Part shown: positions 12,135 to 38,867 of the stretch, piece after piece
Layout: every line of letters starts with the position of its first letter
Position numbering within the stretch: the first letter of the stretch is position 1
From: a virus
Lineage: Duplodnaviria; Heunggongvirae; Uroviricota; Caudoviricetes
Direction: 5' to 3' (one strand)
Virus record (IMG/VR): IMGVR_UViG_2526164634_000034
Location: 1 to 38,867 of that record
Length of the DNA: 38,867 nt
Notes under the pieces: model-generated
Database searches by the model: none
Told to the model about the DNA's origin: nothing
What the model saw: only the letters and a program-made list of their open reading frames with translations
Translations under genes and position numbers: made by a program

Positions 12135-12965
12135 TGATTACTCCTGGTTAACTCGGCATTAAGTCTGCCGGTGACTGTGGTGGTGACTGGAATTGCTGTT
12201 GTTGTGACTCGGCGACATCTTTCAGAAGGCGTATTGCCTCCATCACTGCTTTGTCATCGATGTTTCTGGCTTGAGCCAGTTTATAGACAGTGTTTGCCTG
12301 ACTCTCCATCGCATCCTGCTGGGCAGTAAATGCTTTGATTTGAGTTTGAGCAGTTTCGTTAGTTGCTTTTTGCGCTTCTGCCTGCGCTGCTACCATTTGC
12401 GCCTGAGCGAGAACCATTTCAGGATTTGGCTGGCTTTGTGCTGCCATTTGCGCCTGTTGAACAATCTGCTGCTCTTTCTCATTGCGTGGTTTTGCAATAC
12501 CAGATATCAGCAGTTGGTTTCGGTTGTACTCTTTGAAGTCATCAAGGCCTTCGCCATCGATATTGTCCAGAATAATACCCTGAATTGCCGGGCGCATTGG
12601 GTCTGTTGGAAGCATAGAGCTAAGGACATTTGTCAGTACAGAAACCGTTGCATCACGTCGTGCTGTGTAGCTTGGTCCAACATCAACCGTCACATCGTAT
12701 CGACCGACAGAAAGGTCATTTAACGCAACAACAGCCCCTGTTTGCCTGTCAACAACCTGTGCGCTCAGGACAGCGATATCATCACTTCCATCTTCGTTAA
12801 CGATGCGCACTTCACGTTCTGAACCGTACACTTCACGCGCCATTGACAGCCATACTTCACCAGCGCGTTTAAGACTTTTCGCCATATTATCCAGATAGAT
12901 AAACGAAGCCATATCTGCTCTGTTCATCAAGTTGTTAACCGTTTCCTGAGCAATATTACTTGGCA

Positions 12966-14294
12966 CTGAGAGATCCCCTCATAATTTCCCCAAAACGTAA
13001 CCATGTGTGAATAGATTTTGAGTAAGCAGGGTTGCAGCCACGAGTGAGTCTTCCCTTGTTATTGTGTAGCCAGAATGCCGCAAAACTTCCATGCCTAAGC
13101 GAACTGTTGAGAGTACGTTTCGATTTCTGACTGTGTTAGCCTGGAAGTGCTTGTCCCAACCTTGTTTCTGAGCATGAACGCCCGCAAGCCAACATGTTAG
13201 TTGAAGCATCAGGGCGATTAGCAGCATGATATCAAAACGCTCTGAGCTGCTCGTTCGGCTATGGCGTAGGCCTAGTCCGTAGGCAGGACTTTTCAAGTCT
13301 CGGAAGGTTTCTTCAATCTGCATTCGCTTCGAATAGATATTAACAAGTTGTTTGGGTGTTCGAATTTCAACAGGTAAGTTAGTTGCTAGAATCCATGGCT
13401 CCTTTGCCGACGCTGAGTAGATTTTAGGTGACGGGTGGTGACAATGAGTCCGTGTCGAGCGCTGATTTTTTCGGCCTTTAGAGCGAGATTTATACAATAG
13501 AATTTGGCATGAGATTGGATTGCTTTTAGTCAGCCTCTTATAGCCTAAAGTCTTTGAGTGACTAGATGACATATCATGTAAGTTGCTGATAGGTTTCCAG
13601 TTTTCCGCTCCTAGGTCTGCATATTGTACTTTTCCTCTTACTCGACTTAACCAGTACCAACCCAGCTTCTCAACGGATTTATACCATGGCACTTTAAAGC
13701 CAGCATCACTGACAATGAGCGGTGTGGTGTTACTCGGTAGAATGCTCGCAAGGTCGGCTAGAAATTGGTCATGAGCTTTCTTTGAACATTGCTCTGAAAG
13801 CGGGAACGCTTTCTCATAAAGAGTAACAGAACGACCGTGTAGTGCGACTGAAGCTCGCAATACCATAAGCCGTTTTTGCTCACGGATATCAGACCAGTCA
13901 ACAAGTACAATGGGCATCGTATTGCCCGAACAGATAAAGCTAGCATGCCAACGGTATACAGCGAGTCGCTCTTTGTGGAGGTGACGATTACCTAACAATC
14001 GGTCGATTCGTTTGATGTTATGTTTTGTTCTCGCTTTGGTTGGCAGGTTACGGCCAAGTTCGGTAAGAGTGAGAGTTTTACAGTCAAGTAAGGCGTGGCA
14101 AGCCAACGTTAAGCTGTTGAGTCGTTTTAAGTGTAATTCGGGGCAGAATTGGTAAAGAGAGTCGTGTAAAATATCGAGTTCGCACATTTTGTTGTCTGAT
14201 TATTGATTTTTGGCGAAACCATTTGATCATATGACAAGATGTGTATCTACCTTAACTTAATGATTTTGATAAAAATCATTAGGGGATTCATCAG
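12966..14294 (-). mobile_element. IS10 (1329 bp) with 9-bp target-site duplication TACTTGGCA
   Basis: Terminal sequences CTGAGAGATCCCCTCATAATTTCCCC (12966..) and ...AATCATTAGGGGATTCATCAG (..14294); identical 9-bp direct repeats at 12957..12965 and 14295..14303. Confidence 0.95.
12979..14187 (-). CDS. IS10 transposase
   Basis: 402 aa, MCELDILHDSLYQFCPELHLKRLNSLTLACHALLDCK..., matching the recalled IS10 (Tn10) transposase. Confidence 0.95.
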   Translation of the reverse strand: MCELDILHDSLYQFCPELHLKRLNSLTLACHALLDCKTLTLTELGRNLPTKARTKHNIKRIDRLLGNRHLHKERLAVYRWHASFICSGNTMPIVLVDWSDIREQKRLMVLRASVALHGRSVTLYEKAFPLSEQCSKKAHDQFLADLASILPSNTTPLIVSDAGFKVPWYKSVEKLGWYWLSRVRGKVQYADLGAENWKPISNLHDMSSSHSKTLGYKRLTKSNPISCQILLYKSRSKGRKNQRSTRTHCHHPSPKIYSASAKEPWILATNLPVEIRTPKQLVNIYSKRMQIEETFRDLKSPAYGLGLRHSRTSSSERFDIMLLIALMLQLTCWLAGVHAQKQGWDKHFQANTVRNRNVLSTVRLGMEVLRHSGYTITREDSLVAATLLTQNLFTHGYVLGKL

Positions 14295-15614
14295 TACTTG
14301 GCATCTGCTGCATGGCCTGACTGCCGCCTGTAACCTCCTGAATATCAGCACTGGTTTGCTGTAGTAATGCAGCCAATGCCTGATTCATAACCGCAGGCTG
14401 TGTATATCCTGCCGGGGTAGCTCCAGCGATAATGTTGCCAGATTTATCTCTCACTTCGCGCAACGGCAAGAACGCTGGGCGTTTCTTGTTGCGAGCCTCC
14501 CAGTGCTTCTCAAGTCCACGAATTTGCTCCATGCCAACTATAGGGATCTGACCGGGGTCTTGCGCTGCAGTATCAGCCAGCATTGAAACCTGAAGGTTGT
14601 ACAAACGCTGTGGATCCATTGCTTTTGCAATGTGCCCTTCGACACGCTCAATGTCATCAATGAACCAGCGTTTTCCATAAACCGGGATGAGGGGGATATG
14701 CTCACCAGGAATACGTCGAGGTTTCTCAAGGAAACCATCACCATCCACTACGGATACATACACACGACGGCGCTTCACTGAGCGCCTTGCCACTTCCTGA
14801 AATCCAGCTATTGCCAGTTCATCTTCAATATCTTCAACCTGATCACTGTCGTATGTTGCAATCTCTCCAGTGATTGGATGTCGATAACTGATGACGTCAA
14901 CAGACTCTTTACGAACTTCGTAATACTTCGCTATGTAAATAACATCTGCACCAAACCAGTTATATTCCCAACTGGTCATAGACGTTACATCCAGAGAAGT
15001 GGGAGGTTTCTTTCCGTATTCAGCCTCATATTTTTCAGGTGACAACGAATACATACAGAACGCCCACAACGCGTCAGATTTGTCGTACTTCTTAGCGTCA
15101 GGGTCAAACCACACAGAGCGCGACGGGTCGTATATTGGTTCAATAGCAATACGCTGACGATCGTCCATGGGGTCGTATTCATTGACCAGCATCGACGCCA
15201 AACGGAAGCAACCGAAACCACCAGTAGCAGCGTCGTCAAATGCATTATCGCAAGCCTCACCGCCATCAGTTTCTTCGTAGTCAGCACGGAACAGACCATT
15301 TAATTTATTGGCTAACTCTTCGCTTGCCTCTCTGTCACCAGGACGAAACTTAACGGTTATTCTGTTATTGCGGTATTCTGCAATGATGCGGTTAAGTTCA
15401 GTTGCTACCTTATTGATTTCAAACTTAGGATACTTCTCGAACTGCTCATCAAGCTTAGTTCCAGCCGCCGTTGCTCCTTCCCATTGACCTCCGGGGACAC
15501 GAGCAAACCTCGTAGCTTCAATGCACTTTTCGCGCACTTCCTTCTGTGGAGAATAGGCGCGGTCAAACCTGAGCATGATCCGCTCATGTTTTTTCTCTAA
15601 TGTCTCTGCCATGT

Positions 15615-17027
15615 TTACCAACCGGAGGATGAGGGAACGTATATTTCTGTTTCTTCGCGGACCAATGCCGGGAAATGCATACACATCATCAGCGCATCAG
15701 CCAGGTTAGGAGATGGAATACCGAGCTTCTGCTTCATTTCGACCTTAGTCATAAGCTCCAGCTTCCCGTTATTATTGAATTTGCGCTGAATCTGAGTCAG
15801 TTCTGCAAACAGCTTCTCCAGCATCTTCTCGCCTATCGCTTCTTTGTCGAAACTCAGCATGTCGTCGGGGTCTGCATACTCACCGTGAACAACCGCCCGA
15901 TATGTCAGATACAGCCTGTCAGCCAGCGCATAATAGAATTGCGCTCGCTTATTGCGGAATACATCGCCAATAGTGCGAACGTTGTCGCCCTGTACTACTT
16001 CATCAGCCCATGCTCCGGCCTGATACGGCGCATCTTCATCGAATGGCGATTCGCTGCCCTTGAACATCGTGGCGGTGATTTTCTTGCCGGAGAACGCTTC
16101 CGTTGTCTGTCTGCGTAGCCCGGCACCAACACCATCACCATCCCACAGGTAGTGGTCAGCGCCGTCTTCAATCGCCAGAGAAGTAGCCCAGTCAGCACCC
16201 TCGTTGATGTCCATCAGCAGACCTTCGGCAATGCGTTTAACTACCGAACCGTGGCGCGATGCGTAACCTTTAGCATCTGGCCCTGTATCTGACGGGTCAT
16301 GTGCAGAAACAACAGCGCCTTTCGCTTTCCATCCGAGTTTCTTGTGCGCATCGGTTGCGGCTTCAAGCCATTCACGTTTGATGATTGCCATATCACTTGC
16401 GCTTACCGGCTCACCAAGCCAGATGTGACGATACAGTGTCGGGTTTCTGCGTTTACACTCTTCCATCTCCAGACGGAGAACTTCAGGAAAGTGCGGGTTG
16501 TCGGTGTAGTTCACCGTCAGCAGACAAATATCATCAGGAGGGTTTACGACGAATCGCTGATAGGTATCGTCGAGGATGTTTTTCGGGTTAAAGCTCACCC
16601 ATATTTCGGAAAACGGCTTGCGGATTGTTGGGATCAGGATATCCCACGATTCCTTTGTTACCGCTTCCGCTTCTTCCACCCAGCAGATATCAATGCCTTC
16701 GAGCGATTTAATCTTCGTCGGGTTGTTTTTGATGCCGTAGAACATGAACTCAGCATTCGTTCCGAGATGACGAATCATGGAACGCTGAATTTCAAACTCA
16801 GCCGAATACCCTTCACGCTCGATGGTATCTTCAAGCAACCGGATTACCGAATCGCTGATACTGTTTTGCAGTTCACGAGCGCAGAGTATGCGCACAGGCT
16901 GCCGACGCGCCGCTTCAACAAGCAGCCTCGCAATTGCCCATGACTTACCGCTACCTCGACCGCCTTTGGCGACTTTGTAGCGATGCGCCTCAATGAACGG
17001 TTCAAAGATAGGATTAATCGAGGTCAT
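15615..17027 (-). CDS. Terminase large subunit
   Basis: 470 aa (Sf6 gp2 size) with Walker A-like KVAKGGRGSGKS near the N-terminus; stop overlaps the portal start. Confidence 0.9.
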   Translation of the reverse strand: MTSINPIFEPFIEAHRYKVAKGGRGSGKSWAIARLLVEAARRQPVRILCARELQNSISDSVIRLLEDTIEREGYSAEFEIQRSMIRHLGTNAEFMFYGIKNNPTKIKSLEGIDICWVEEAEAVTKESWDILIPTIRKPFSEIWVSFNPKNILDDTYQRFVVNPPDDICLLTVNYTDNPHFPEVLRLEMEECKRRNPTLYRHIWLGEPVSASDMAIIKREWLEAATDAHKKLGWKAKGAVVSAHDPSDTGPDAKGYASRHGSVVKRIAEGLLMDINEGADWATSLAIEDGADHYLWDGDGVGAGLRRQTTEAFSGKKITATMFKGSESPFDEDAPYQAGAWADEVVQGDNVRTIGDVFRNKRAQFYYALADRLYLTYRAVVHGEYADPDDMLSFDKEAIGEKMLEKLFAELTQIQRKFNNNGKLELMTKVEMKQKLGIPSPNLADALMMCMHFPALVREETEIYVPSSSGW

Positions 17028-26975: not shown

Positions 26976-27009
26976 AATGACTCCTGTGGATTGATCCAGT
27001 CTTTCTACA

Positions 27010-27291
27010 TCAGGCCTCGAAGAATTCGCCGTTCTTCGGGGCTTTTTCTTTTGTCAGGTAATTGGCAAGCCGCTTAGTCAGCTCAGCCATTTCATCGTCT
27101 TCGATTCCGTATTCCAGAACAGCCAGCATCATGCTTACCTGCGAGAAGAAACCATTCTTCCATCGGCTTACCTGATATTCAGGAACCCCCATTGCTCGAG
27201 CGAATGTCTTCTGCCCCATCAGTGCCAGTTTGTTCAGCAAGGCTGACTCGATGCGAGCCGCTTTCTTGCTTTTAGTTGCAATAGTACCCAT
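27010..27291 (-). CDS. cII: CII-like transcriptional activator
   Basis: 93 aa; ...ARIESALLNKLALMG...VSRWK...SMMLAVLEYGIEDDEMAELTK resembles recalled lambda CII. Confidence 0.8.
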   Translation of the reverse strand: MGTIATKSKKAARIESALLNKLALMGQKTFARAMGVPEYQVSRWKNGFFSQVSMMLAVLEYGIEDDEMAELTKRLANYLTKEKAPKNGEFFEA

Positions 27292-27367
27292 AGATAATTT
27301 CCTTAATTATTAGATAGAGTTGGCTTCGCAAAGAAACGCAAAACCATAGAGATTTGTTTCTGGTAAT

Positions 27368-27399
27368 GCCCTTTTTCAGGGCGGGGATGTGTAAGAGCG
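27368..27399 (-). promoter_or_regulatory. nutR (boxA + boxB)
   Basis: Minus strand reads CGCTCTTAC (boxA) then GCCCTGAAAAAGGGC (boxB), matching recalled lambda nutR, between cro and cII. Confidence 0.8.
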
Positions 27400-27407
27400 T
27401 TAATAAC

Positions 27408-27638
27408 TTAAGCGGCCATTAATTCAGGCCAGATGCTTTCCCAATCAACCGGATGAAGGTCTTTGCGAGTCACTTCACCATTGCTGAACTTCTCAATCAG
27501 AACACAAAGTGCTGCGCCCAATTCATGATTACGGCTAAGTGCTTTCCTCAAATAGCCGATAGAAGTTCCGCACTTGGTGGCAAATTCTCTCTGCTCTTCC
27601 AGTGAAAGGGAGTTCAGATACAAGCGGAGTTCTTCCAT
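27408..27638 (-). CDS. cro: Cro-like repressor
   Basis: 76-aa ORF divergent from cI across the operator region; not lambda-type Cro. Confidence 0.7.
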   Translation of the reverse strand: MEELRLYLNSLSLEEQREFATKCGTSIGYLRKALSRNHELGAALCVLIEKFSNGEVTRKDLHPVDWESIWPELMAA

Positions 27639-27672
27639 TTGCTATCTCCTTCCCGTTGTTGAATAAGATGAG

Positions 27673-27728
27673 TTTACCTGTAGGTAAAAAGCAAATCAAT
27701 ACCCATAGGTTATTTACCGGCAGGTAAT
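27673..27728. promoter_or_regulatory. OR operator region (pR/pRM)
   Basis: Three related 16-17-bp near-palindromes: TTTACCTGTAGGTAAAA (27673..27689), AATACCCATAGGTTATT (27698..27714), TTTACCGGCAGGTAAT (27713..27728), between divergent cro and cI. Confidence 0.7.
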
Positions 27729-27746
27729 CAAAGATAGAATTAAATC

Positions 27747-28433
27747 ATGGATAAATACGAACAAAGACGACTAAGGCTGATAGAGATAAGAGACCGATTC
27801 TGTAATGGAAAGGCCTCAGAGTTGGCTCGTCGAATAGAAAGGGAACCATCATACGTTTCCAGAATGCTGTATCCGGAAGGAAAAAGCGGAAAAAAACGCA
27901 TTGCTGACGATATGATGGAGCTAATTGAAAAATCTTTTAATCTCCCACGCGGATGGATGGACATGCTTGCAGATGGTAAAGCTGGAGCTACGGACCATCT
28001 TGAGTTTGCGGGTAACGTTCGTGCGGGTTTTGTTCCGGTAATTGGTGAAGCCGTTTTGGGAGTTGATGGCTCAGTGGATATGATTGAATTCAGATCCGGT
28101 TGGTTAAGCATCTACAGCGGCGATAAAGATGCTTACGGTCTGAAGGTTAAGGGTGACAGCATGTGGCCAAGGATTCAGTCAGGAGAATATGTTGTTATTG
28201 AACCAAATACGCCAGTACATCCAGGTGATGAAGTCTTTGTAAGGACCAAAGACGGTCACAACATGATAAAGATCATGAACAAAACAAGAGACGGTGATTA
28301 TCAGTTTAGTAGCATAAACAGTGATCACCGCCCAATCACTCTTCCTGTTGAAGAAGTTGATAAAATGCATTTTGTTTCAGCTATTGTGAAACACACCAGG
28401 TACGTAGACCAGGACGATCTGCCAAAAGTTTGA
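27747..28433 (+). CDS. cI: CI repressor (HTH plus LexA-like S24 autoprotease domain)
   Basis: 228 aa; C-terminal domain with catalytic Ser (GDSMWP) and downstream Lys; divergent from cro. Confidence 0.9.
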   Translation: MDKYEQRRLRLIEIRDRFCNGKASELARRIEREPSYVSRMLYPEGKSGKKRIADDMMELIEKSFNLPRGWMDMLADGKAGATDHLEFAGNVRAGFVPVIGEAVLGVDGSVDMIEFRSGWLSIYSGDKDAYGLKVKGDSMWPRIQSGEYVVIEPNTPVHPGDEVFVRTKDGHNMIKIMNKTRDGDYQFSSINSDHRPITLPVEEVDKMHFVSAIVKHTRYVDQDDLPKV

Positions 28434-28447
28434 GGATAAAGCAGCAA

Positions 28448-28744
28448 ATGTTTATACCCGGCATAGTAGTCGCTGTTGTAATCATCTGCTTCATATGGGC
28501 AAAGTTATCTCCTGTAAGCTCTAAGCATACAGCTGAACTCATGAGGAAGAAGCATCTTATACATGAGGCAGAATCGATAATTAAAAAGTTCAAAGGCATG
28601 TCATACGACGACATGTCATCAGAGCAGATTGCTATGTATAAATGCGCCATTGAGCGCCTTGACTACTTAAACGGACTCAAACCCAAACACACCCCAGTAG
28701 AATCAAAATTGCCGCAATGGCCAAGCAATCCAAATAGCTTCTGA
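28448..28744 (+). CDS. Small single-pass membrane protein at the rex position (candidate exclusion factor)
   Basis: 98 aa from ATG 28448 (GAGGA upstream; the track ORF begins at TTG 28430); N-terminal transmembrane helix FIPGIVVAVVIICFIWAKL; co-oriented with cI and followed by a terminator. Confidence 0.5.
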   Translation: MFIPGIVVAVVIICFIWAKLSPVSSKHTAELMRKKHLIHEAESIIKKFKGMSYDDMSSEQIAMYKCAIERLDYLNGLKPKHTPVESKLPQWPSNPNSF

Positions 28745-28755
28745 CATCTCCTTTC

Positions 28756-28778
28756 AGCCCGCAAAGCGGGCTTTTTTA
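28756..28778 (+). terminator. Rho-independent terminator ending the cI operon
   Basis: AGCCCGC-AAA-GCGGGCT followed by TTTTTTAT. Confidence 0.7.
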
Positions 28779-28797
28779 TATCAATCCAAAAAATTAA

Positions 28798-28881
28798 TTA
28801 CCTGAAAATTCAAGCAGGTAAACTCTTACATCAATTTTATTTACCTACAGGTATAGACAGCTGTTTTACCTGCAGGTATAT
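28798..28881. promoter_or_regulatory. OL operator region / pL
   Basis: Repeats of the OR-type motif: TTTACCTACAGGTATAG (28838..28856) and TTTTACCTGCAGGTATAT (28864..28881), plus a spaced variant TTACCTGAAAATTCAAGCAGGTAA (28798..28821). Confidence 0.65.
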
Positions 28882-28922
28882 TTTAGGCCATCAGCAGGAC
28901 GCACTAACCACCATGAAGGTGA

Positions 28923-28953
28923 TGCTCTTAAAAATTAAGCCCTGAAGAAGGGC
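28923..28953 (+). promoter_or_regulatory. nutL (boxA + boxB)
   Basis: TGCTCTTAA...GCCCTGAAGAAGGGC; matches recalled lambda nutL with one boxA substitution (T for C). Confidence 0.85.
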
Positions 28954-29221
28954 AGCATTCAAAGCAGAAGGCTTTGGGGTGTGGTGAAGCCAGCTAGTCA
29001 CTGGCAAGTGCTTACCTACTGTTGAGCGGTGAAGCGCTCCCAACGCTAGCAATAGCGTGGACGAGATGGGGAGCCGCGGGCGATAAGGCCGCCATAACGC
29101 GCACGTTGTCGCATGGAAAAATCGCTGGGGTGCCGGTTATACCCATCCGAATGAGACTCAACAAGCTGGAGCTAGACTACCAGCCACCACACCACCAAAG
29201 CTAACTGACAGGAGAATCCAG

Positions 29222-29548
29222 ATGGATGCACAAACACGCCGCCGCGAACGTCGCGCAGAGAAACAGGCTCAATGGAAAGCAGCAAATCCCCTGTTGGTTG
29301 GGGTAAGCGCAAAACCAGTTAACCGCCCTATTCTCTCGCTGAATCGCAAACCGAAATCACGAGTAGAAAGCGCACTGAATCCGATAGACCTTACGGTGCT
29401 GGCTGAATACCACGAACAGATTGAAAACAACCTGCAACGTATTGAGCGCAAGAATCAGCGCACATGGTACAGCAAACCACGCAGTGAAATGGGTGTGACT
29501 TGTGTTGGTCGCCAGAAAATGAAATTAGGCAGCAAACCACTTATTTGA
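29222..29548 (+). CDS. N: Antiterminator N
   Basis: 108 aa, MDAQTRRRERRAEKQAQWKAANPLLVGVSAKPVNRPILSLNRK... with arginine-rich motif; near-identical to recalled lambda N in its N-terminal two thirds. Confidence 0.95.
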   Translation: MDAQTRRRERRAEKQAQWKAANPLLVGVSAKPVNRPILSLNRKPKSRVESALNPIDLTVLAEYHEQIENNLQRIERKNQRTWYSKPRSEMGVTCVGRQKMKLGSKPLI

Positions 29549-29569
29549 GGTGAGGGTAATGACTCCAAC

Positions 29570-30073
29570 TTATTGATAGTGTTTTATGTTCAGATAATGC
29601 CCGATGACTTTGTCATGCAGCTCCACCGATTTTGAGAACGACAGCGACTTCCGTCCCAGCCGTGCCAGGTGCTGCCTCAGATTCAGGTTATGCCGCTCAA
29701 TTCGCTGCGTATATCGCTTGCTGATTACGTGCAGCTTTCCCTTCAGGCGGGATTCATACAGCGGCCAGCCATCCGTCATCCATATCACCACGTCAAAGGG
29801 TGACAGCAGGCTCATAAGACGCCCCAGCGTCGCCATAGTGCGTTCACCGAATACGTGCGCAACAACCGTCTTCCGGAGCCTGTCATACGCGTAAAACAGC
29901 CAGCGCTGGCGCGATTTAGCCCCGACGTATCCCCACTGTTCGTCCATTTCCGCGCAGACGATGACGTCACTGCCCGGCTGTATGCGCGAGGTTACCGACT
30001 GCGGCCTGAGTTTTTTAAATGGCGGAAAATCGTGTTGAGGCCAACGCCCATAATGCGGGCGGTTGCCCGGCAT
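29570..30073 (-). CDS. insB: IS1 transposase InsB
   Basis: 167 aa, [37 protein letters not shown]... Confidence 0.95.
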
Positions 30074-30267
30074 CCAACGCCATTCATGGCCATATCAATG
30101 ATTTTCTGGTGCGTACCGGGTTGAGAAGCGGTGTAAGTGAACTGCAGTTGCCATGTTTTACGGCAGTGAGAGCAGAGATAGCGCTGATGTCCGGCGGTGC
30201 TTTTGCCGTTACGCACCACCCCGTCAGTAGCTGAACAGGAGGGACAGCTGATAGAAACAGAAGCCAC
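29992..30267 (-). CDS. insA: IS1 InsA
   Basis: 91 aa, [40 protein letters not shown]... Confidence 0.95.
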
Positions 30268-30333
30268 TGGAGCACCTCAAAAACACCATCATACACTAAA
30301 TCAGTAAGTTGGCAGCATCACCTGAGGTGAGAT

Positions 30334-31523: not shown

Positions 31524-33593
<2,070 letters not shown>

Positions 33594-37320: not shown

Positions 37321-38033
37321 GCAATATTGACTATCAGGCACTGCGTGAAAAGGCAGAGAAAGCAACGAGTGGTGTGTGGTCGCTAGAATATGGAGAGGAG
37401 AGATTTGATGCTGGTGATGCGCTAATTCATCGTGAAGTTGTTGGATATCTTCCCATTTGCAGAATTGAAGGAGCGCATCCTGAAAGCGGTTTCGATGAAG
37501 ATTTCCAAATGGAACAGCAGGCCAATGCTGAATTCATCGCCGCAGCCAATCCGGCTACCGTGCTGGCACTACTGGATGAACGGGAAAGGAACCAGCAATA
37601 CATCAAATCCCGCGACCAGGAGAACGAGGATATTGCGCTAACGGTAGGGAAGCTGCGCGTTGAGCTGGAAGGCAAAGACAGCAAAATAGCCAATCTTACC
37701 GCCGAACGCGATGCTCTTCGTGAAGGTGAGATGGGCGACGCTAGGCATAGCAACACACGGGCCGCAGCTGATATCTACTTCCAACTGGTCGAGGAGTGCG
37801 AAATTCCTGCTGGCGGTTCTCTGGTCGAGTACGTTGACGATATGCGCGAGAAGCTGGAAGCCGCAGAGAAGCGCATAGCAGAACTGGAGGAGCGGGAAAT
37901 ACTGCTCCCGGAACGTAGCAGCATGCTTCATCGAACAGATTTTCACGATGATTACCAAACGGTAATGGCATACAAAGTTTCTGAAGTCATCGATGCAATC
38001 CGCGCTACTGGCATTCGCATCAAAGGAGAGTGA
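37317..38033 (+). CDS. Ea22-like protein
   Basis: GTG start with AAGGAGG upstream; ALLDERERNQQYIKSRDQENEDIALTVGKLRVELE and C-terminal ...GIRIKGE match recalled lambda Ea22. Confidence 0.8.
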   Translation: MSNIDYQALREKAEKATSGVWSLEYGEERFDAGDALIHREVVGYLPICRIEGAHPESGFDEDFQMEQQANAEFIAAANPATVLALLDERERNQQYIKSRDQENEDIALTVGKLRVELEGKDSKIANLTAERDALREGEMGDARHSNTRAAADIYFQLVEECEIPAGGSLVEYVDDMREKLEAAEKRIAELEEREILLPERSSMLHRTDFHDDYQTVMAYKVSEVIDAIRATGIRIKGE

Positions 38034-38035
38034 TA

Positions 38036-38271
38036 TGGCAACTTTGAAAAAAGAAGATCGTTTTACCAAAAAACAAATCGCCGAGGCAAAAATCCTCGAT
38101 AACAACGGAACCTACTTCATCAACGGTTCCATTCTTCCAGTTTATATCAATGAGGATGGAGACACTTACCTTATTGAAGAGTACGAAAAAGGCGAGCCGA
38201 GCGAACACCTCATTAAAGATTTGTTCGCGGATGGCGTTATTGTTGCGGTTAATCCAATCGGATACAACTGA
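38036..38271 (+). CDS. Hypothetical 78-aa protein
   Basis: ATG with AAAGGAGAG upstream; MATLKKEDRFTKKQIAEAKILDNNGTYFINGS... Confidence 0.45.
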
Positions 38272-38281
38272 GGCATAATTT

Positions 38282-38587
38282 ATGACCACTTTCACCGACA
38301 AAGAACTGATTAAAGAAATCAAAGAGCGTATCAGCAGCCTGGACGTTCGAGACAATATTGAGCGCCGTGCTTATGAAATCGCACTCCTATCTCTGGAAGT
38401 AGAACCAGATGAACGCGAAGCTTATGAATTATTCATGGAAAAGCGTTTCGGTGACTTAGTAGATCGTCGGAGAGCAAAAAACGGCGATAACGAATACATG
38501 GCATGGGATATGACTCTCGGTTGGATCGTCTGGCAGCAACGAGCTGGTATCCATTTTTCAACAATGTCACAGCAAGAGGTGAAATAA
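38282..38587 (+). CDS. Hypothetical 101-aa protein
   Basis: ORF with GAGG upstream; no recognisable motif. Confidence 0.5.
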   Translation: MTTFTDKELIKEIKERISSLDVRDNIERRAYEIALLSLEVEPDEREAYELFMEKRFGDLVDRRRAKNGDNEYMAWDMTLGWIVWQQRAGIHFSTMSQQEVK

Positions 38588-38675: not shown

Positions 38676-38867
38676 ATGACCGATACCAGCCTGATTCCTG
38701 AGAAAGAAGTGATGAACAAGCTCGGTGTTTCATCACGTCAGACAATCTGGAACTATACCAAACGGCACGGATTTCCGAAGCCAGTCAGAACCCACCCCAA
38801 ATCATACCTTCGTGAAGCTGTTGAAGGGTGGATTCTTAACGGTGGCGTTAATCAGAAATGCTCCTGA
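38676..38867 (+). CDS. xis: Excisionase / AlpA-family HTH protein (putative Xis)
   Basis: 63 aa with ...KLGVSSRQTIWNYTKRHGFPKPV...W pattern typical of Xis/AlpA proteins; at the distal end of the pL operon where xis-int is expected; stop is the last codon of the window. Confidence 0.55.
   Translation: MTDTSLIPEKEVMNKLGVSSRQTIWNYTKRHGFPKPVRTHPKSYLREAVEGWILNGGVNQKCS

Follow-up and report, generated by a model that had tools for sequence, protein, structure and literature searches.

mEp043-type cI, cro and operators beside a lambda-type N gene: a known and common natural combination of early control modules

The region between positions 27368 and 29548 of the window (the whole stretch of 38,867 nucleotides that was analysed) is very probably the early control region of a lambdoid prophage lying in reverse orientation, in which an mEp043-type immunity cassette and a lambda-type N system of differing ancestry have been joined at promoter and gene boundaries. 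The combination of mEp043-type cI, cro and operators with lambda-type N is known, catalogued and common in nature. The hybrid pointed out in the preliminary description is not an unusual arrangement, since coliphage mEp043 c-1 (GenBank, 2012) already pairs the same cI, cro and operators with the same nut sites and a lambda-type N. Window positions 27000-29553 were 99.0% identical to this phage at the DNA level; at that identity the match covered 98% of positions 27000-29600, with matching annotation. The limits of the region were exact, 27368 being the outer end of nutR boxB and 29548 the final base of the stop codon of N. The features of the region and its borders are given below.

27010..27291, minus strand: cII-like activator gene (93 aa; Pfam Phage_CII, 103 bits; phrog_191)
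27266-27279, plus strand: CII-binding/pRE motif TTGCN6TTGC, annotated in mEp043 at the equivalent position
27368..27399, minus strand: nutR, with boxA CGCTCTTAC (27391-27399) and boxB GCCCTGAAAAAGGGC (27368-27382)
27408..27638, minus strand: gene in the cro position, of non-lambda type (76 aa)
27671..27699, minus strand: putative pR (-35 TTGATT, 17-nt spacer, -10 TAAACT), its spacer and -10 overlapped by OR1
27673..27688, no strand: OR1, TTTACCTGTAGGTAAA; only central position 9 is variable among relatives
27698..27713, no strand: OR2, a weak match, AATACCCATAGGTTAT; centre 25 bp from OR1 and at about -41.5 from the predicted pRM start; only the centre varies
27713..27728, no strand: OR3, TTTACCGGCAGGTAAT; centre 15 bp from OR2; overlaps the pRM -35
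27713..27740, plus strand: putative pRM (TTTACC, 16-nt spacer, TAGAAT; promoter scan 9/12)
27747..28433, plus strand: cI repressor gene (228 aa), with an mEp043-type N-terminal DNA-binding domain and a 933W/H-19B-type S24 C-terminal domain
28448..28744, plus strand: 98-aa ORF in the rex position, co-oriented with cI (phrog_10450, function unknown, 7.8e-55; hypothetical in mEp043)
28756..28779, plus strand: intrinsic-terminator-like hairpin (AGCCCGC-AAA-GCGGGCT, then a run of T) closing the cI operon
28798..28821, no strand: split inverted repeat TTACCTG-N10-CAGGTAA, with operator half-sites 12 bp apart instead of 2
28840..28855, no strand: OL2, TTTACCTACAGGTATA; overlaps the pL -35
28854..28882, plus strand: pL (TAGACA, 17-nt spacer, TATATT; promoter scan 10/12), also annotated in mEp043
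28865..28880, no strand: OL1, TTTACCTGCAGGTATA; overlaps the pL spacer and -10; centre 25 bp from OL2
28890..29221, plus strand: N leader, with lambda-like ends that include the N ribosome-binding site
28923..28953, plus strand: nutL, with boxA TGCTCTTAA (28923-28931) and boxB GCCCTGAAGAAGGGC (28939-28953)
29222..29548, plus strand: N antiterminator gene (108 aa; Pfam N36, 92 bits against a cut-off of 25; phrog_271)
29555..30322, minus strand: IS1 (768 bp; Pfam InsA and IS1 transposase), inserted immediately behind the stop codon of N

The CI protein was 100% identical to that of mEp043, and by sequence the immunity type is that of mEp043, as both the CI DNA-binding domain and the operator half-sites are identical. 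The N-terminal domain matched the repressor families phrog_5736 and phrog_4, Peptidase_S24 was found at 63.9 bits (Pfam cut-off 23.3), and Ser138 in the motif GDSM was invariant in the alignment with the CI proteins of lambda, 933W and H-19B. With an S24 domain, a catalytic serine and an N-terminal DNA-binding domain, CI would be an autocleaving repressor of the LexA/CI type; its catalytic lysine, which we infer together with the cleavage site, is probably K175. A PDB sequence search with CI returned no relative at E up to 0.01. Among Escherichia and Enterobacteria records, the listed matches to the N-terminal domain at this E limit were all mEp043, CharmingMan, SfV/cdtI-like phages and their relatives. 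The immunity types proposed for comparison in the preliminary description (HK97, HK022, phi80, 21 and 434) were all absent from the phage records sharing this domain at the same limit.

The closest characterised relatives of CI were the repressors of the Shiga-toxin phages 933W and H-19B, with 49-50% identity overall (E 2e-70 to 3e-79), and the mEp043 record annotates its CI as 933W-repressor-like. An immunity specificity of 933W or H-19B, carried by a 933W-type cassette, could be read from these matches. However, the identity was concentrated from about residue 85 on, with a poorly aligning N-terminal part, and a tblastn search with CI residues 1-86 (E up to 0.01) found neither phage. Moreover, no TTTACCT-RY-AGGTAAA sites occurred in the annotated 933W operators or in the H-19B control region, and the Cro of the window was unrelated to that of 933W and barely related to that of H-19B. 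The 933W or H-19B immunity type was rejected, given the unrelated CI N-terminal domain and the different operators, and this reading is extremely unlikely. CI itself is a domain mosaic.

The product of the gene in the cro position was assigned to phrog_35, a transcriptional repressor family (7.5e-16), and was related to the 'antirepressor protein Cro' of PDB entries 8co2/8c7k (E 2e-10), with a Pfam YdaS_toxin match under the cut-off; no significant similarity to lambda Cro or 933W Cro was found. As a small putative DNA-binding protein encoded by the first gene of pR, divergent from cI across OR, it would be a Cro-type lytic repressor. A Pfam search with the 98-aa ORF returned no family. On inspection of its translation, the hydrophobic stretch IPGIVVAVVIICFIW close to the N-terminus may be a membrane segment.

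Five 16-bp palindromes of the form TTTACCT-RY-AGGTAAA were found in the two control regions, three in OR and two in OL. A search of the whole window with TTACCTNNAGGTAA, allowing up to two mismatches, gave five matches against 0.92 expected, a number reached in none of 100 shuffles, and four of the five lay inside the two control regions. The additional, weaker site of these regions at 27698-27713 (OR2) was backed by geometry and by comparison with relatives. Furthermore, OR1-OR2 repeated OL2-OL1 in inverted orientation. Across related immunity regions, variation was seen at 0 of 69 half-site positions, at 8 of 10 central positions and at 16 of the 141 remaining intergenic positions; the Fisher tests (P = 1.7e-9 for central against half-site positions and 0.0017 for half-site against other positions) were made on columns that are phylogenetically non-independent. 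Throughout the mEp043-type operators, half-site positions were identical and differences were confined to the central bases.

The putative pR matched 8 of 12 consensus positions, a value under the promoter-scan threshold, so it was missed by the scan and is regarded as a candidate promoter; its layout is like that of pL, where OL1 ends inside the -10. The -10 of the putative pRM ends 6 nt before the cI ATG (27747), and therefore the mRNA of cI would have little or no leader, like in lambda. For pL, the predicted transcript start at 28890 was mapped via the HK544 annotation.

These operators bear out the preliminary description, which had called them non-lambda palindromes and had taken CI and Cro not to be lambda-like. 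Identity to lambda CI was limited to 31% over just 55 aa around the S24 catalytic motif, the only common ground of the two proteins, and the OR DNA did not align with lambda. Sites of the TATCACCGC type were absent from the window and present in the surveyed lambda-type loci. The imm-lambda type, defined by 17-bp TATCACCGC-type operators and by CI and Cro homologous to those of lambda, was rejected on the unalignable OR and the dissimilar Cro. That the operators and cI might turn out to be lambda-type after all on alignment, the outcome that the preliminary description had named as contradicting it, has next to no probability.

OR2 matches the palindrome weakly and has one base pair in common with OR3, and for these reasons it is uncertain whether both sites are occupied simultaneously; this geometry is kept in phage CharmingMan despite a different CI C-terminal domain. 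In the split repeat at 28798-28821, which may be a third OL element, the gap between the half-sites exceeds that of the operators by exactly 10 bp, about one helical turn. These half-sites were invariant in 20 OL variants, which says little because most of the flanking DNA was likewise invariant. Since OR2 and OR3 abut, OL has two canonical sites and a split repeat, and the central R-Y varies in every operator among relatives, the mEp043-type switch might be wired unlike that of lambda, with mutually exclusive occupancy of OR2 and OR3 or with a long-range element replacing OL3. This reading is put forward tentatively and seems unlikely.

On the antitermination side, nutL boxB, nutR boxA (9/9) and nutR boxB were identical to lambda, nutL boxA matched at 8 of 9 positions, and the spacer between nutR boxA and boxB had two substitutions (alignment with lambda 38242-38359). 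From the pL start (28890) to about 28986, the window differed from lambda by two substitutions, at 28906 (A for G) and 28923 (T for C), and by one extra G. The first ~254 nt of N showed four differences from lambda, and residues 1-86 of the protein only K65E and S69N, with an identical arginine-rich motif, while 13 of the last 22 residues matched. Thus, the near base-for-base match to lambda claimed earlier held for nutL, for nutR and for roughly the first four fifths of N, and failed at the N 3' end. The C-terminal allele of the window was the commonest one, occurring in 41 of the surveyed loci. With an arginine-rich motif of the boxB-binding kind and nut sites downstream of pL and of cro, the system would be of the lambda N/nut type.

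The N leader, 332 nt in the window against roughly 220 nt in lambda, has a long lambda-like closing stem, in which about 28970-28986 pairs with 29185-29201, around a centre (about 28987-29181) that is unrelated to lambda and makes it about 110 nt longer. In predicted folds, the leaders of the window and of lambda had the same outer architecture (z-score of the window, -5.15), and the boxB hairpin appeared in the fold. A permissive Rfam scan of 27250-29600 gave chance-level matches only, and therefore no described RNA family covers the long leader. The same leader is present in HK544, HK633 and mEp043.

A total of 152 sequences holding the lambda nutL core were surveyed, and the DNA just upstream was sorted by operator class. 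At least five classes were found, namely 434-type, lambda-type, mEp043-type and two others, with 434-type ACAA-N6-TTGT operators upstream of pL in 60 of the 152 loci. Both nutL boxA alleles were found with every operator class, and each of the well-sampled classes had several N C-terminal alleles and leader lengths. These results support the view that immunity and antitermination modules are exchanged independently and assort freely in nature, because operator classes vary upstream of nutL, homology starts at the pL start and the boxA T allele spans the classes. The independent exchange of antitermination system and repressor specificity proposed in the preliminary description is in line with this result. 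The survey illustrates that lambdoid mosaics recombine at functional boundaries, here the start of the pL transcript and the ends of cro and N, and that even cI is built from exchangeable domains. Lambdoid mosaicism with junctions at functional boundaries is a principle established for decades and found in textbooks.

The T at the first base of nutL boxA, noted earlier as one substitution relative to lambda, is confirmed at 28923 and is the sole difference from lambda within the nutL boxes; it could be read as a functionally meaningful private mutation that weakens or changes the recruitment of Nus factors. However, the allele TGCTCTTAA was the commoner one in IMG/VR, present in 91 viral contigs against 58 for the C allele, and it occurred with all five immunity classes, which makes such a mutation very improbable. 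The boxA of the E. coli rrn operons begins TGCTCTTTAACAA, and therefore T is the form used in the host's own Nus-dependent antitermination.

The cI, cro, cII and N genes and the 98-aa ORF were all full-length, and the operators, promoters and nut sites were all intact. The prophage that hosts the module resembles Sf6/HK620 and is defective: the portal gene is interrupted by IS10, IS1 follows N, and farther into the early-left region there is an IS21-family element, so that the module may no longer control a productive lytic cycle. With three IS elements in the prophage, and an IS1 that could influence the remainder of the pL operon, the control region might be taken as a nonfunctional relic of a decaying prophage, its intact look reflecting recent decay. 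Against this reading, which seems rather improbable, stand the full-length genes, the intact sites and the 99% identity of the block to a plaque-forming phage. In defective prophages, a resident repressor is often retained, as it continues to confer immunity and keeps toxic early genes silent.

IS1 bounds the control module and is not part of it. The 9 bp duplicated at its target, TGAGGTGAG, take in the TGA stop of N. The N-IS1 junction was absent from the GTDB species-representative genomes and was covered by no complete E. coli genome in RefSeq. The match to mEp043 stops at window position 29553, and therefore the window and mEp043 seem to diverge where N ends; an exact search did not locate the empty IS1 target site in mEp043. 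Rfam at the gathering threshold found nothing in the whole window except the IS10 RNA-OUT. Furthermore, at least 80% of the query stretch 27300-29560 was present in 52 of 5,426 complete E. coli genomes, where the closest copy of the control module was 98.9% identical.

DNA binding by CI and Cro, cooperativity, promoter use and antitermination in the window would follow by homology. By analogy with lambda, the LexA-like CI would bind as dimers to the 16-bp TTTACCT-RY-AGGTAAA operators, and the site pairs 25 bp apart (OR1-OR2 and OL1-OL2) would cover pR and pL and switch lytic transcription off. OR2, with its centre about 41.5 bp upstream of the cI start, would be placed for activation of pRM, and OR3, overlapping the pRM -35, would repress this promoter. 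Cro, made from pR, would use the same operators in the opposite sense, and SOS-induced self-cleavage of CI via the S24 domain would lead to prophage induction. The pL and pR transcripts would then carry nutL and nutR with lambda-identical boxB hairpins; the arginine-rich RNA-binding motif of N is the same as in lambda N, and therefore N should bind boxB. Together with host Nus factors on boxA, N would allow RNA polymerase to read through terminators. Under this scheme, the host is predicted to be immune to phages of mEp043 immunity and not to lambda, 434, 933W or H-19B. The region can be annotated with confidence as an immunity cassette of the mEp043 type joined to a lambda-type N/nut system.

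Compared with known systems, mEp043 c-1 (JQ182734 / NC_019706; genus Aguilavirus) has cII, nutR, cro, OR, cI, the 98-aa ORF, the terminator, OL/pL, nutL, the long N leader and N in the same order as the window. It differs in its taxonomy line, which gives another genus (Aguilavirus), and in the central bases of OL1 and OL2. Moreover, the structural genes of the window are Sf6/HK620-like, of the P22 type, and after N the window has IS1 and other genes. In replication, a Phage_rep_O gene and an ES18 gp61-like gene are annotated in mEp043 c-1, while the replication ORFs of the window have O-like and DnaB-type domains. None of the papers listed as mentioning mEp043 gives a biochemical description of its operators or repressor. 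In lambdoid phages, cI and cro are described as being co-transferred as a unit, and mEp043 c-1 is among the annotated model phages (bioRxiv 10.1101/2022.06.30.498228); a passage of PMC11893012, citing Kameyama 1999, gives 19 immunity groups for the lambdoid mEp phages.

In phage CharmingMan, the CI N-terminal domain is 80.6% identical to that of the window and the C-terminal domain is lambda-like; its operators belong to the same site family, with the same 25-bp and 15-bp spacings and a strong site at the OR2 spacing. The annotated operator pairs of 933W are about 24-25 bp apart, resembling the spacing in the window, whereas the N/nut systems of 933W and H-19B differ from that of the window.

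As in the window, the nut sites of lambda follow pL and cro, and both have the same ribosome-binding site for N and the same stem closing the leader. In contrast, the cro, operators, cI and rex position of lambda between the nut sites are all unrelated to those of the window. HK544 and HK633, wild lambda-like phages from Hong Kong, are 98.4-98.8% identical to the window from 28889 onward, over pL(+1), nutL, the long leader and the N allele. The homology to HK544 and lambda begins at the annotated pL +1 of HK544 (window 28890), and HK544 is annotated with lambda-type cI, cro and operators, unlike the window. The same principle is found where 434-type immunity lies next to lambda-type N, with a foreign cI/cro/operator cassette between lambda-type nutL and nutR, although operator sequence and repressor differ from those of the window. 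This arrangement of 434-type immunity beside lambda-type N is the basis of the classical lambda imm434 hybrids.

Read on the + strand, positions 27000-29560 presented the layout of the lambda early region in reversed orientation relative to the lambda map.

Features of the early region (window coordinates)
27010-27291 (-): cII
27368-27399 (-): nutR
27408-27638 (-): cro-position gene
108 bp between the cro-position gene and cI: first control region
27747-28433 (+): cI
28448-28744 (+): 98-aa ORF
28756-28772: terminator-like hairpin
Between that hairpin and nutL: second control region, holding pL
28923-28953: nutL
332 nt: N leader
29222-29548 (+): N

The range initially proposed for a hybrid immunity region (27368-29548) had exact ends: the outer edge of boxB in nutR on one side and the stop codon of N on the other. 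The 98-aa ORF (28448-28744) occupied the rex position between cI and the terminator and belonged to phrog_10450, a phage family of unassigned function, while no Pfam family matched it. Hydrophobic residues clustered close to the N-terminus suggest a membrane protein, so that the ORF is a candidate for an exclusion or accessory gene expressed in the lysogen.

The antitermination side was aligned with lambda 34400-39800. From the pL transcript start (ATCAGCAGG, 28890) to about 28986, two substitutions and one extra G were found. The nutL boxB was identical to that of lambda, and boxA read TGCTCTTAA instead of CGCTCTTAA, the single first-base substitution that the preliminary description had noted. 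In nutR, neither boxA nor boxB differed from lambda, and the spacer between them carried two substitutions. The N gene differed at four positions in its first ~254 nt, residues 1-86 carried only K65E and S69N, and the Pfam N36 boxB-binding peptide scored 92 bits. Thus, the almost base-for-base match to lambda claimed for N and both nut sites held for nutL, nutR and N residues 1-86, but not for the last 22 residues of N, of which 13 were identical.

The centre of the N leader (~28987-29181), unmentioned in the preliminary description, was unrelated to its lambda counterpart, exceeded it by about 110 nt and was rich in G+C (0.54-0.57). Both leader ends were retained and pair into a long closing stem, one arm with an extra G and the other with an extra C, which looks like a compensating pair. 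The predicted fold of the entire leader was much more stable than those of shuffled sequences (z -5.15), and no Rfam family matched it. In lambda, translation of N is controlled by RNase III processing and N autoregulation; conservation of the outer stem suggests that this type of control is retained. As six main length classes of leader (107 to 265 nt by our measure) were found among loci with lambda-type nutL, the replaced centre seems to be filler that is tolerated.

The palindrome TTACCTNNAGGTAA, allowing up to two mismatches, matched five times in the window against 0.92 expected, a number reached in none of 100 shuffles, and four of the five matches fell within the two control regions. 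Together with OR DNA that gave no alignment with lambda, this agreed with the claim of non-lambda palindromic operators.

Predicted operators and promoters
27673-27688: OR1
27698-27713: OR2, weaker
27713-27728: OR3, abutting OR2
28840-28855: OL2
28865-28880: OL1
pL: TAGACA, 17 nt, TATATT; spacer and -10 overlapped by OL1
pR (predicted from the sequence, weaker, pL-like): TTGATT, 17 nt, TAAACT; overlapped by OR1
pRM-like promoter: -10 ending 6 nt before the cI ATG; -35 overlapped by OR3

The centre-to-centre spacing was 25 bp for both OR1-OR2 and OL1-OL2, the former pair being an inverted copy of the latter, and the OR2 centre lay ~41.5 bp upstream of the cI ATG. Upstream of OL2, a split inverted repeat (TTACCTG-N10-CAGGTAA, 28798-28821) carried operator half-sites 12 bp apart instead of 2, the additional 10 bp being about one helical turn; its half-sites were constant in 20 variants, the sole variable base (28814) lying in the gap. 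Two operator-like sequences ~9 kb distant, near the window end, TTACCAAACGGTAA (37952-37965) and TACCAAACGGCA (38756-38767), probably match by chance or belong to another repeat.

By homology, CI dimers would occupy OR1-OR2 and OL1-OL2 cooperatively, blocking pR and pL, while pRM would be activated by CI at OR2 and limited through OR3; Cro made from pR would bind these sites too, with the opposite order of preference. RecA-stimulated self-cleavage of CI through its S24 domain, in which Ser138 is conserved, would induce the prophage. Once pL and pR fired, N would bind the boxB hairpin of both nut sites and, together with Nus factors on boxA, render RNA polymerase terminator-resistant.

Two exact-pattern scans of IMG/VR gave 149 loci with lambda-type nutL, 23 of which, in addition to the window, had operators of the immunity class of coliphage mEp043 c-1 (mEp043-type). 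Among their distinct control-region variants, none of 69 half-site positions varied, compared to 8 of 10 central positions and 16 of 141 (11%) other intergenic positions; Fisher P-values were 1.7e-9 (central vs. half-site) and 0.0017 (half-site vs. other), indicative only, the columns being phylogenetically non-independent. The central dinucleotide (27680-27681, 27705-27706, 27720-27721, 28847-28848 and 28872-28873) was purine-pyrimidine in every operator, and the weak OR2 followed the same pattern of variation as the others. Between close relatives, these dinucleotides were much more variable than the DNA around them.

The structural half of the window was Sf6/HK620-like, that is, P22-type, and the replication ORFs adjoining cII encoded an O-like initiator domain and DnaB-type helicase domains. 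The prophage is defective. Within 12148-15684, an IS10 (transposase 12979-14187, - strand; RNA-OUT 14180-14249, 97 bits) interrupts the P22-type portal gene, leaving two ORFs that correspond to profile positions 2-404 and 400-594, so particles cannot be made. Directly 3' of the N stop codon lay an IS1 (29555-30322, 768 bp, insA/insB on the - strand), whose 9-bp target duplication TGAGGTGAG includes the TGA stop of N; this junction was not found in complete E. coli RefSeq genomes or GTDB species representatives. The third IS, an IS21-family element (31592-33393, - strand; istA 340 aa, istB 260 aa), was in the early-left region. A 661-aa ORF (41-2026) occupied the position of the P22-type tailspike gene; its distal part (within 1-1640) matched neither Sf6 nor HK620 nor any other of the best structural relatives, which suggests a different receptor-binding domain if it is a tailspike.

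When 27000-29600 was compared with phage genomes by megablast, mEp043 c-1 matched 98% of the query at 99.0% identity, and its annotation agreed (CII, an 'antirepressor' for the cro-position gene, repressor, hypothetical protein, putative PL and N). The two CI proteins were 100% identical. The non-lambda character ascribed to CI and Cro was borne out, as CI shared only 31% identity with lambda CI, within a 55-residue segment surrounding the S24 catalytic motif, and Cro had no significant similarity to lambda Cro. A tblastn survey with the DNA-binding domain (CI residues 1-86, E up to 0.01) found 100% identity in mEp043 only, 80.6% in phage CharmingMan and ~39% in SfV/cdtI/Stx2c-type repressors, with no match in lambda, P22, 933W, H-19B or the immunity types proposed for comparison (434, 21, phi80, HK97 and HK022). 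The Mexican lambdoid collection, to which mEp043 belongs, was divided by cross-immunity into 19 lambdoid immunity groups (Kameyama et al. 1999, as cited in PMC11893012); mEp043 later served as an annotated model phage in work showing co-transfer of cI and cro as a unit (bioRxiv 10.1101/2022.06.30.498228).

A total of 152 sequences holding the lambda nutL core were classed by the sequence immediately preceding the pL start, revealing at least five operator classes: 434-type (60), lambda-type (35), GTAC-type (26), mEp043-type (24) and TGTGAT-type (6). Both boxA alleles were found with every class, the T allele being commoner than the C allele of lambda (91 vs. 58 IMG/VR contigs), and in each well-sampled class there were several alleles of the N C-terminus and several leader-length classes. 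The N C-terminal allele of the window was the commonest (41 loci), that of lambda being rarer (8 loci). In HK544, whose operators are lambda-type, homology to the window starts at 28889/28890, the annotated pL +1. Of 5,426 complete E. coli genomes, 1,676 matched part of the query 27300-29560 and 52 carried at least 80% of it. Therefore, the interpretation that antitermination and repressor specificity were exchanged independently is right; such exchange is the normal state of lambdoid phages, and the region is an already known one, in which immunity of the mEp043 type adjoins an N system of the lambda type.

After mEp043, the closest characterised repressors were those of H-19B and 933W (49-50% identity, mostly from about residue 85 onward, the CI C-terminal domain). 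Their operators differ from those of the window, and their Cro proteins show little or no relationship to that of the window. The window cI (27747-28433) combines an mEp043-type N-terminal domain with a 933W/H-19B-type C-terminal domain. In CharmingMan, the C-terminal domain attached to the similar N-terminal domain is lambda-like; the OR of this phage has the same site family with the same 25-bp and 15-bp spacings, and its OL has two sites. Therefore, cI is itself a domain mosaic (27747-28433 in the window; 1492-2166 in sequence L155), and the operator type follows the N-terminal domain, as the operator geometry shared with CharmingMan indicates.
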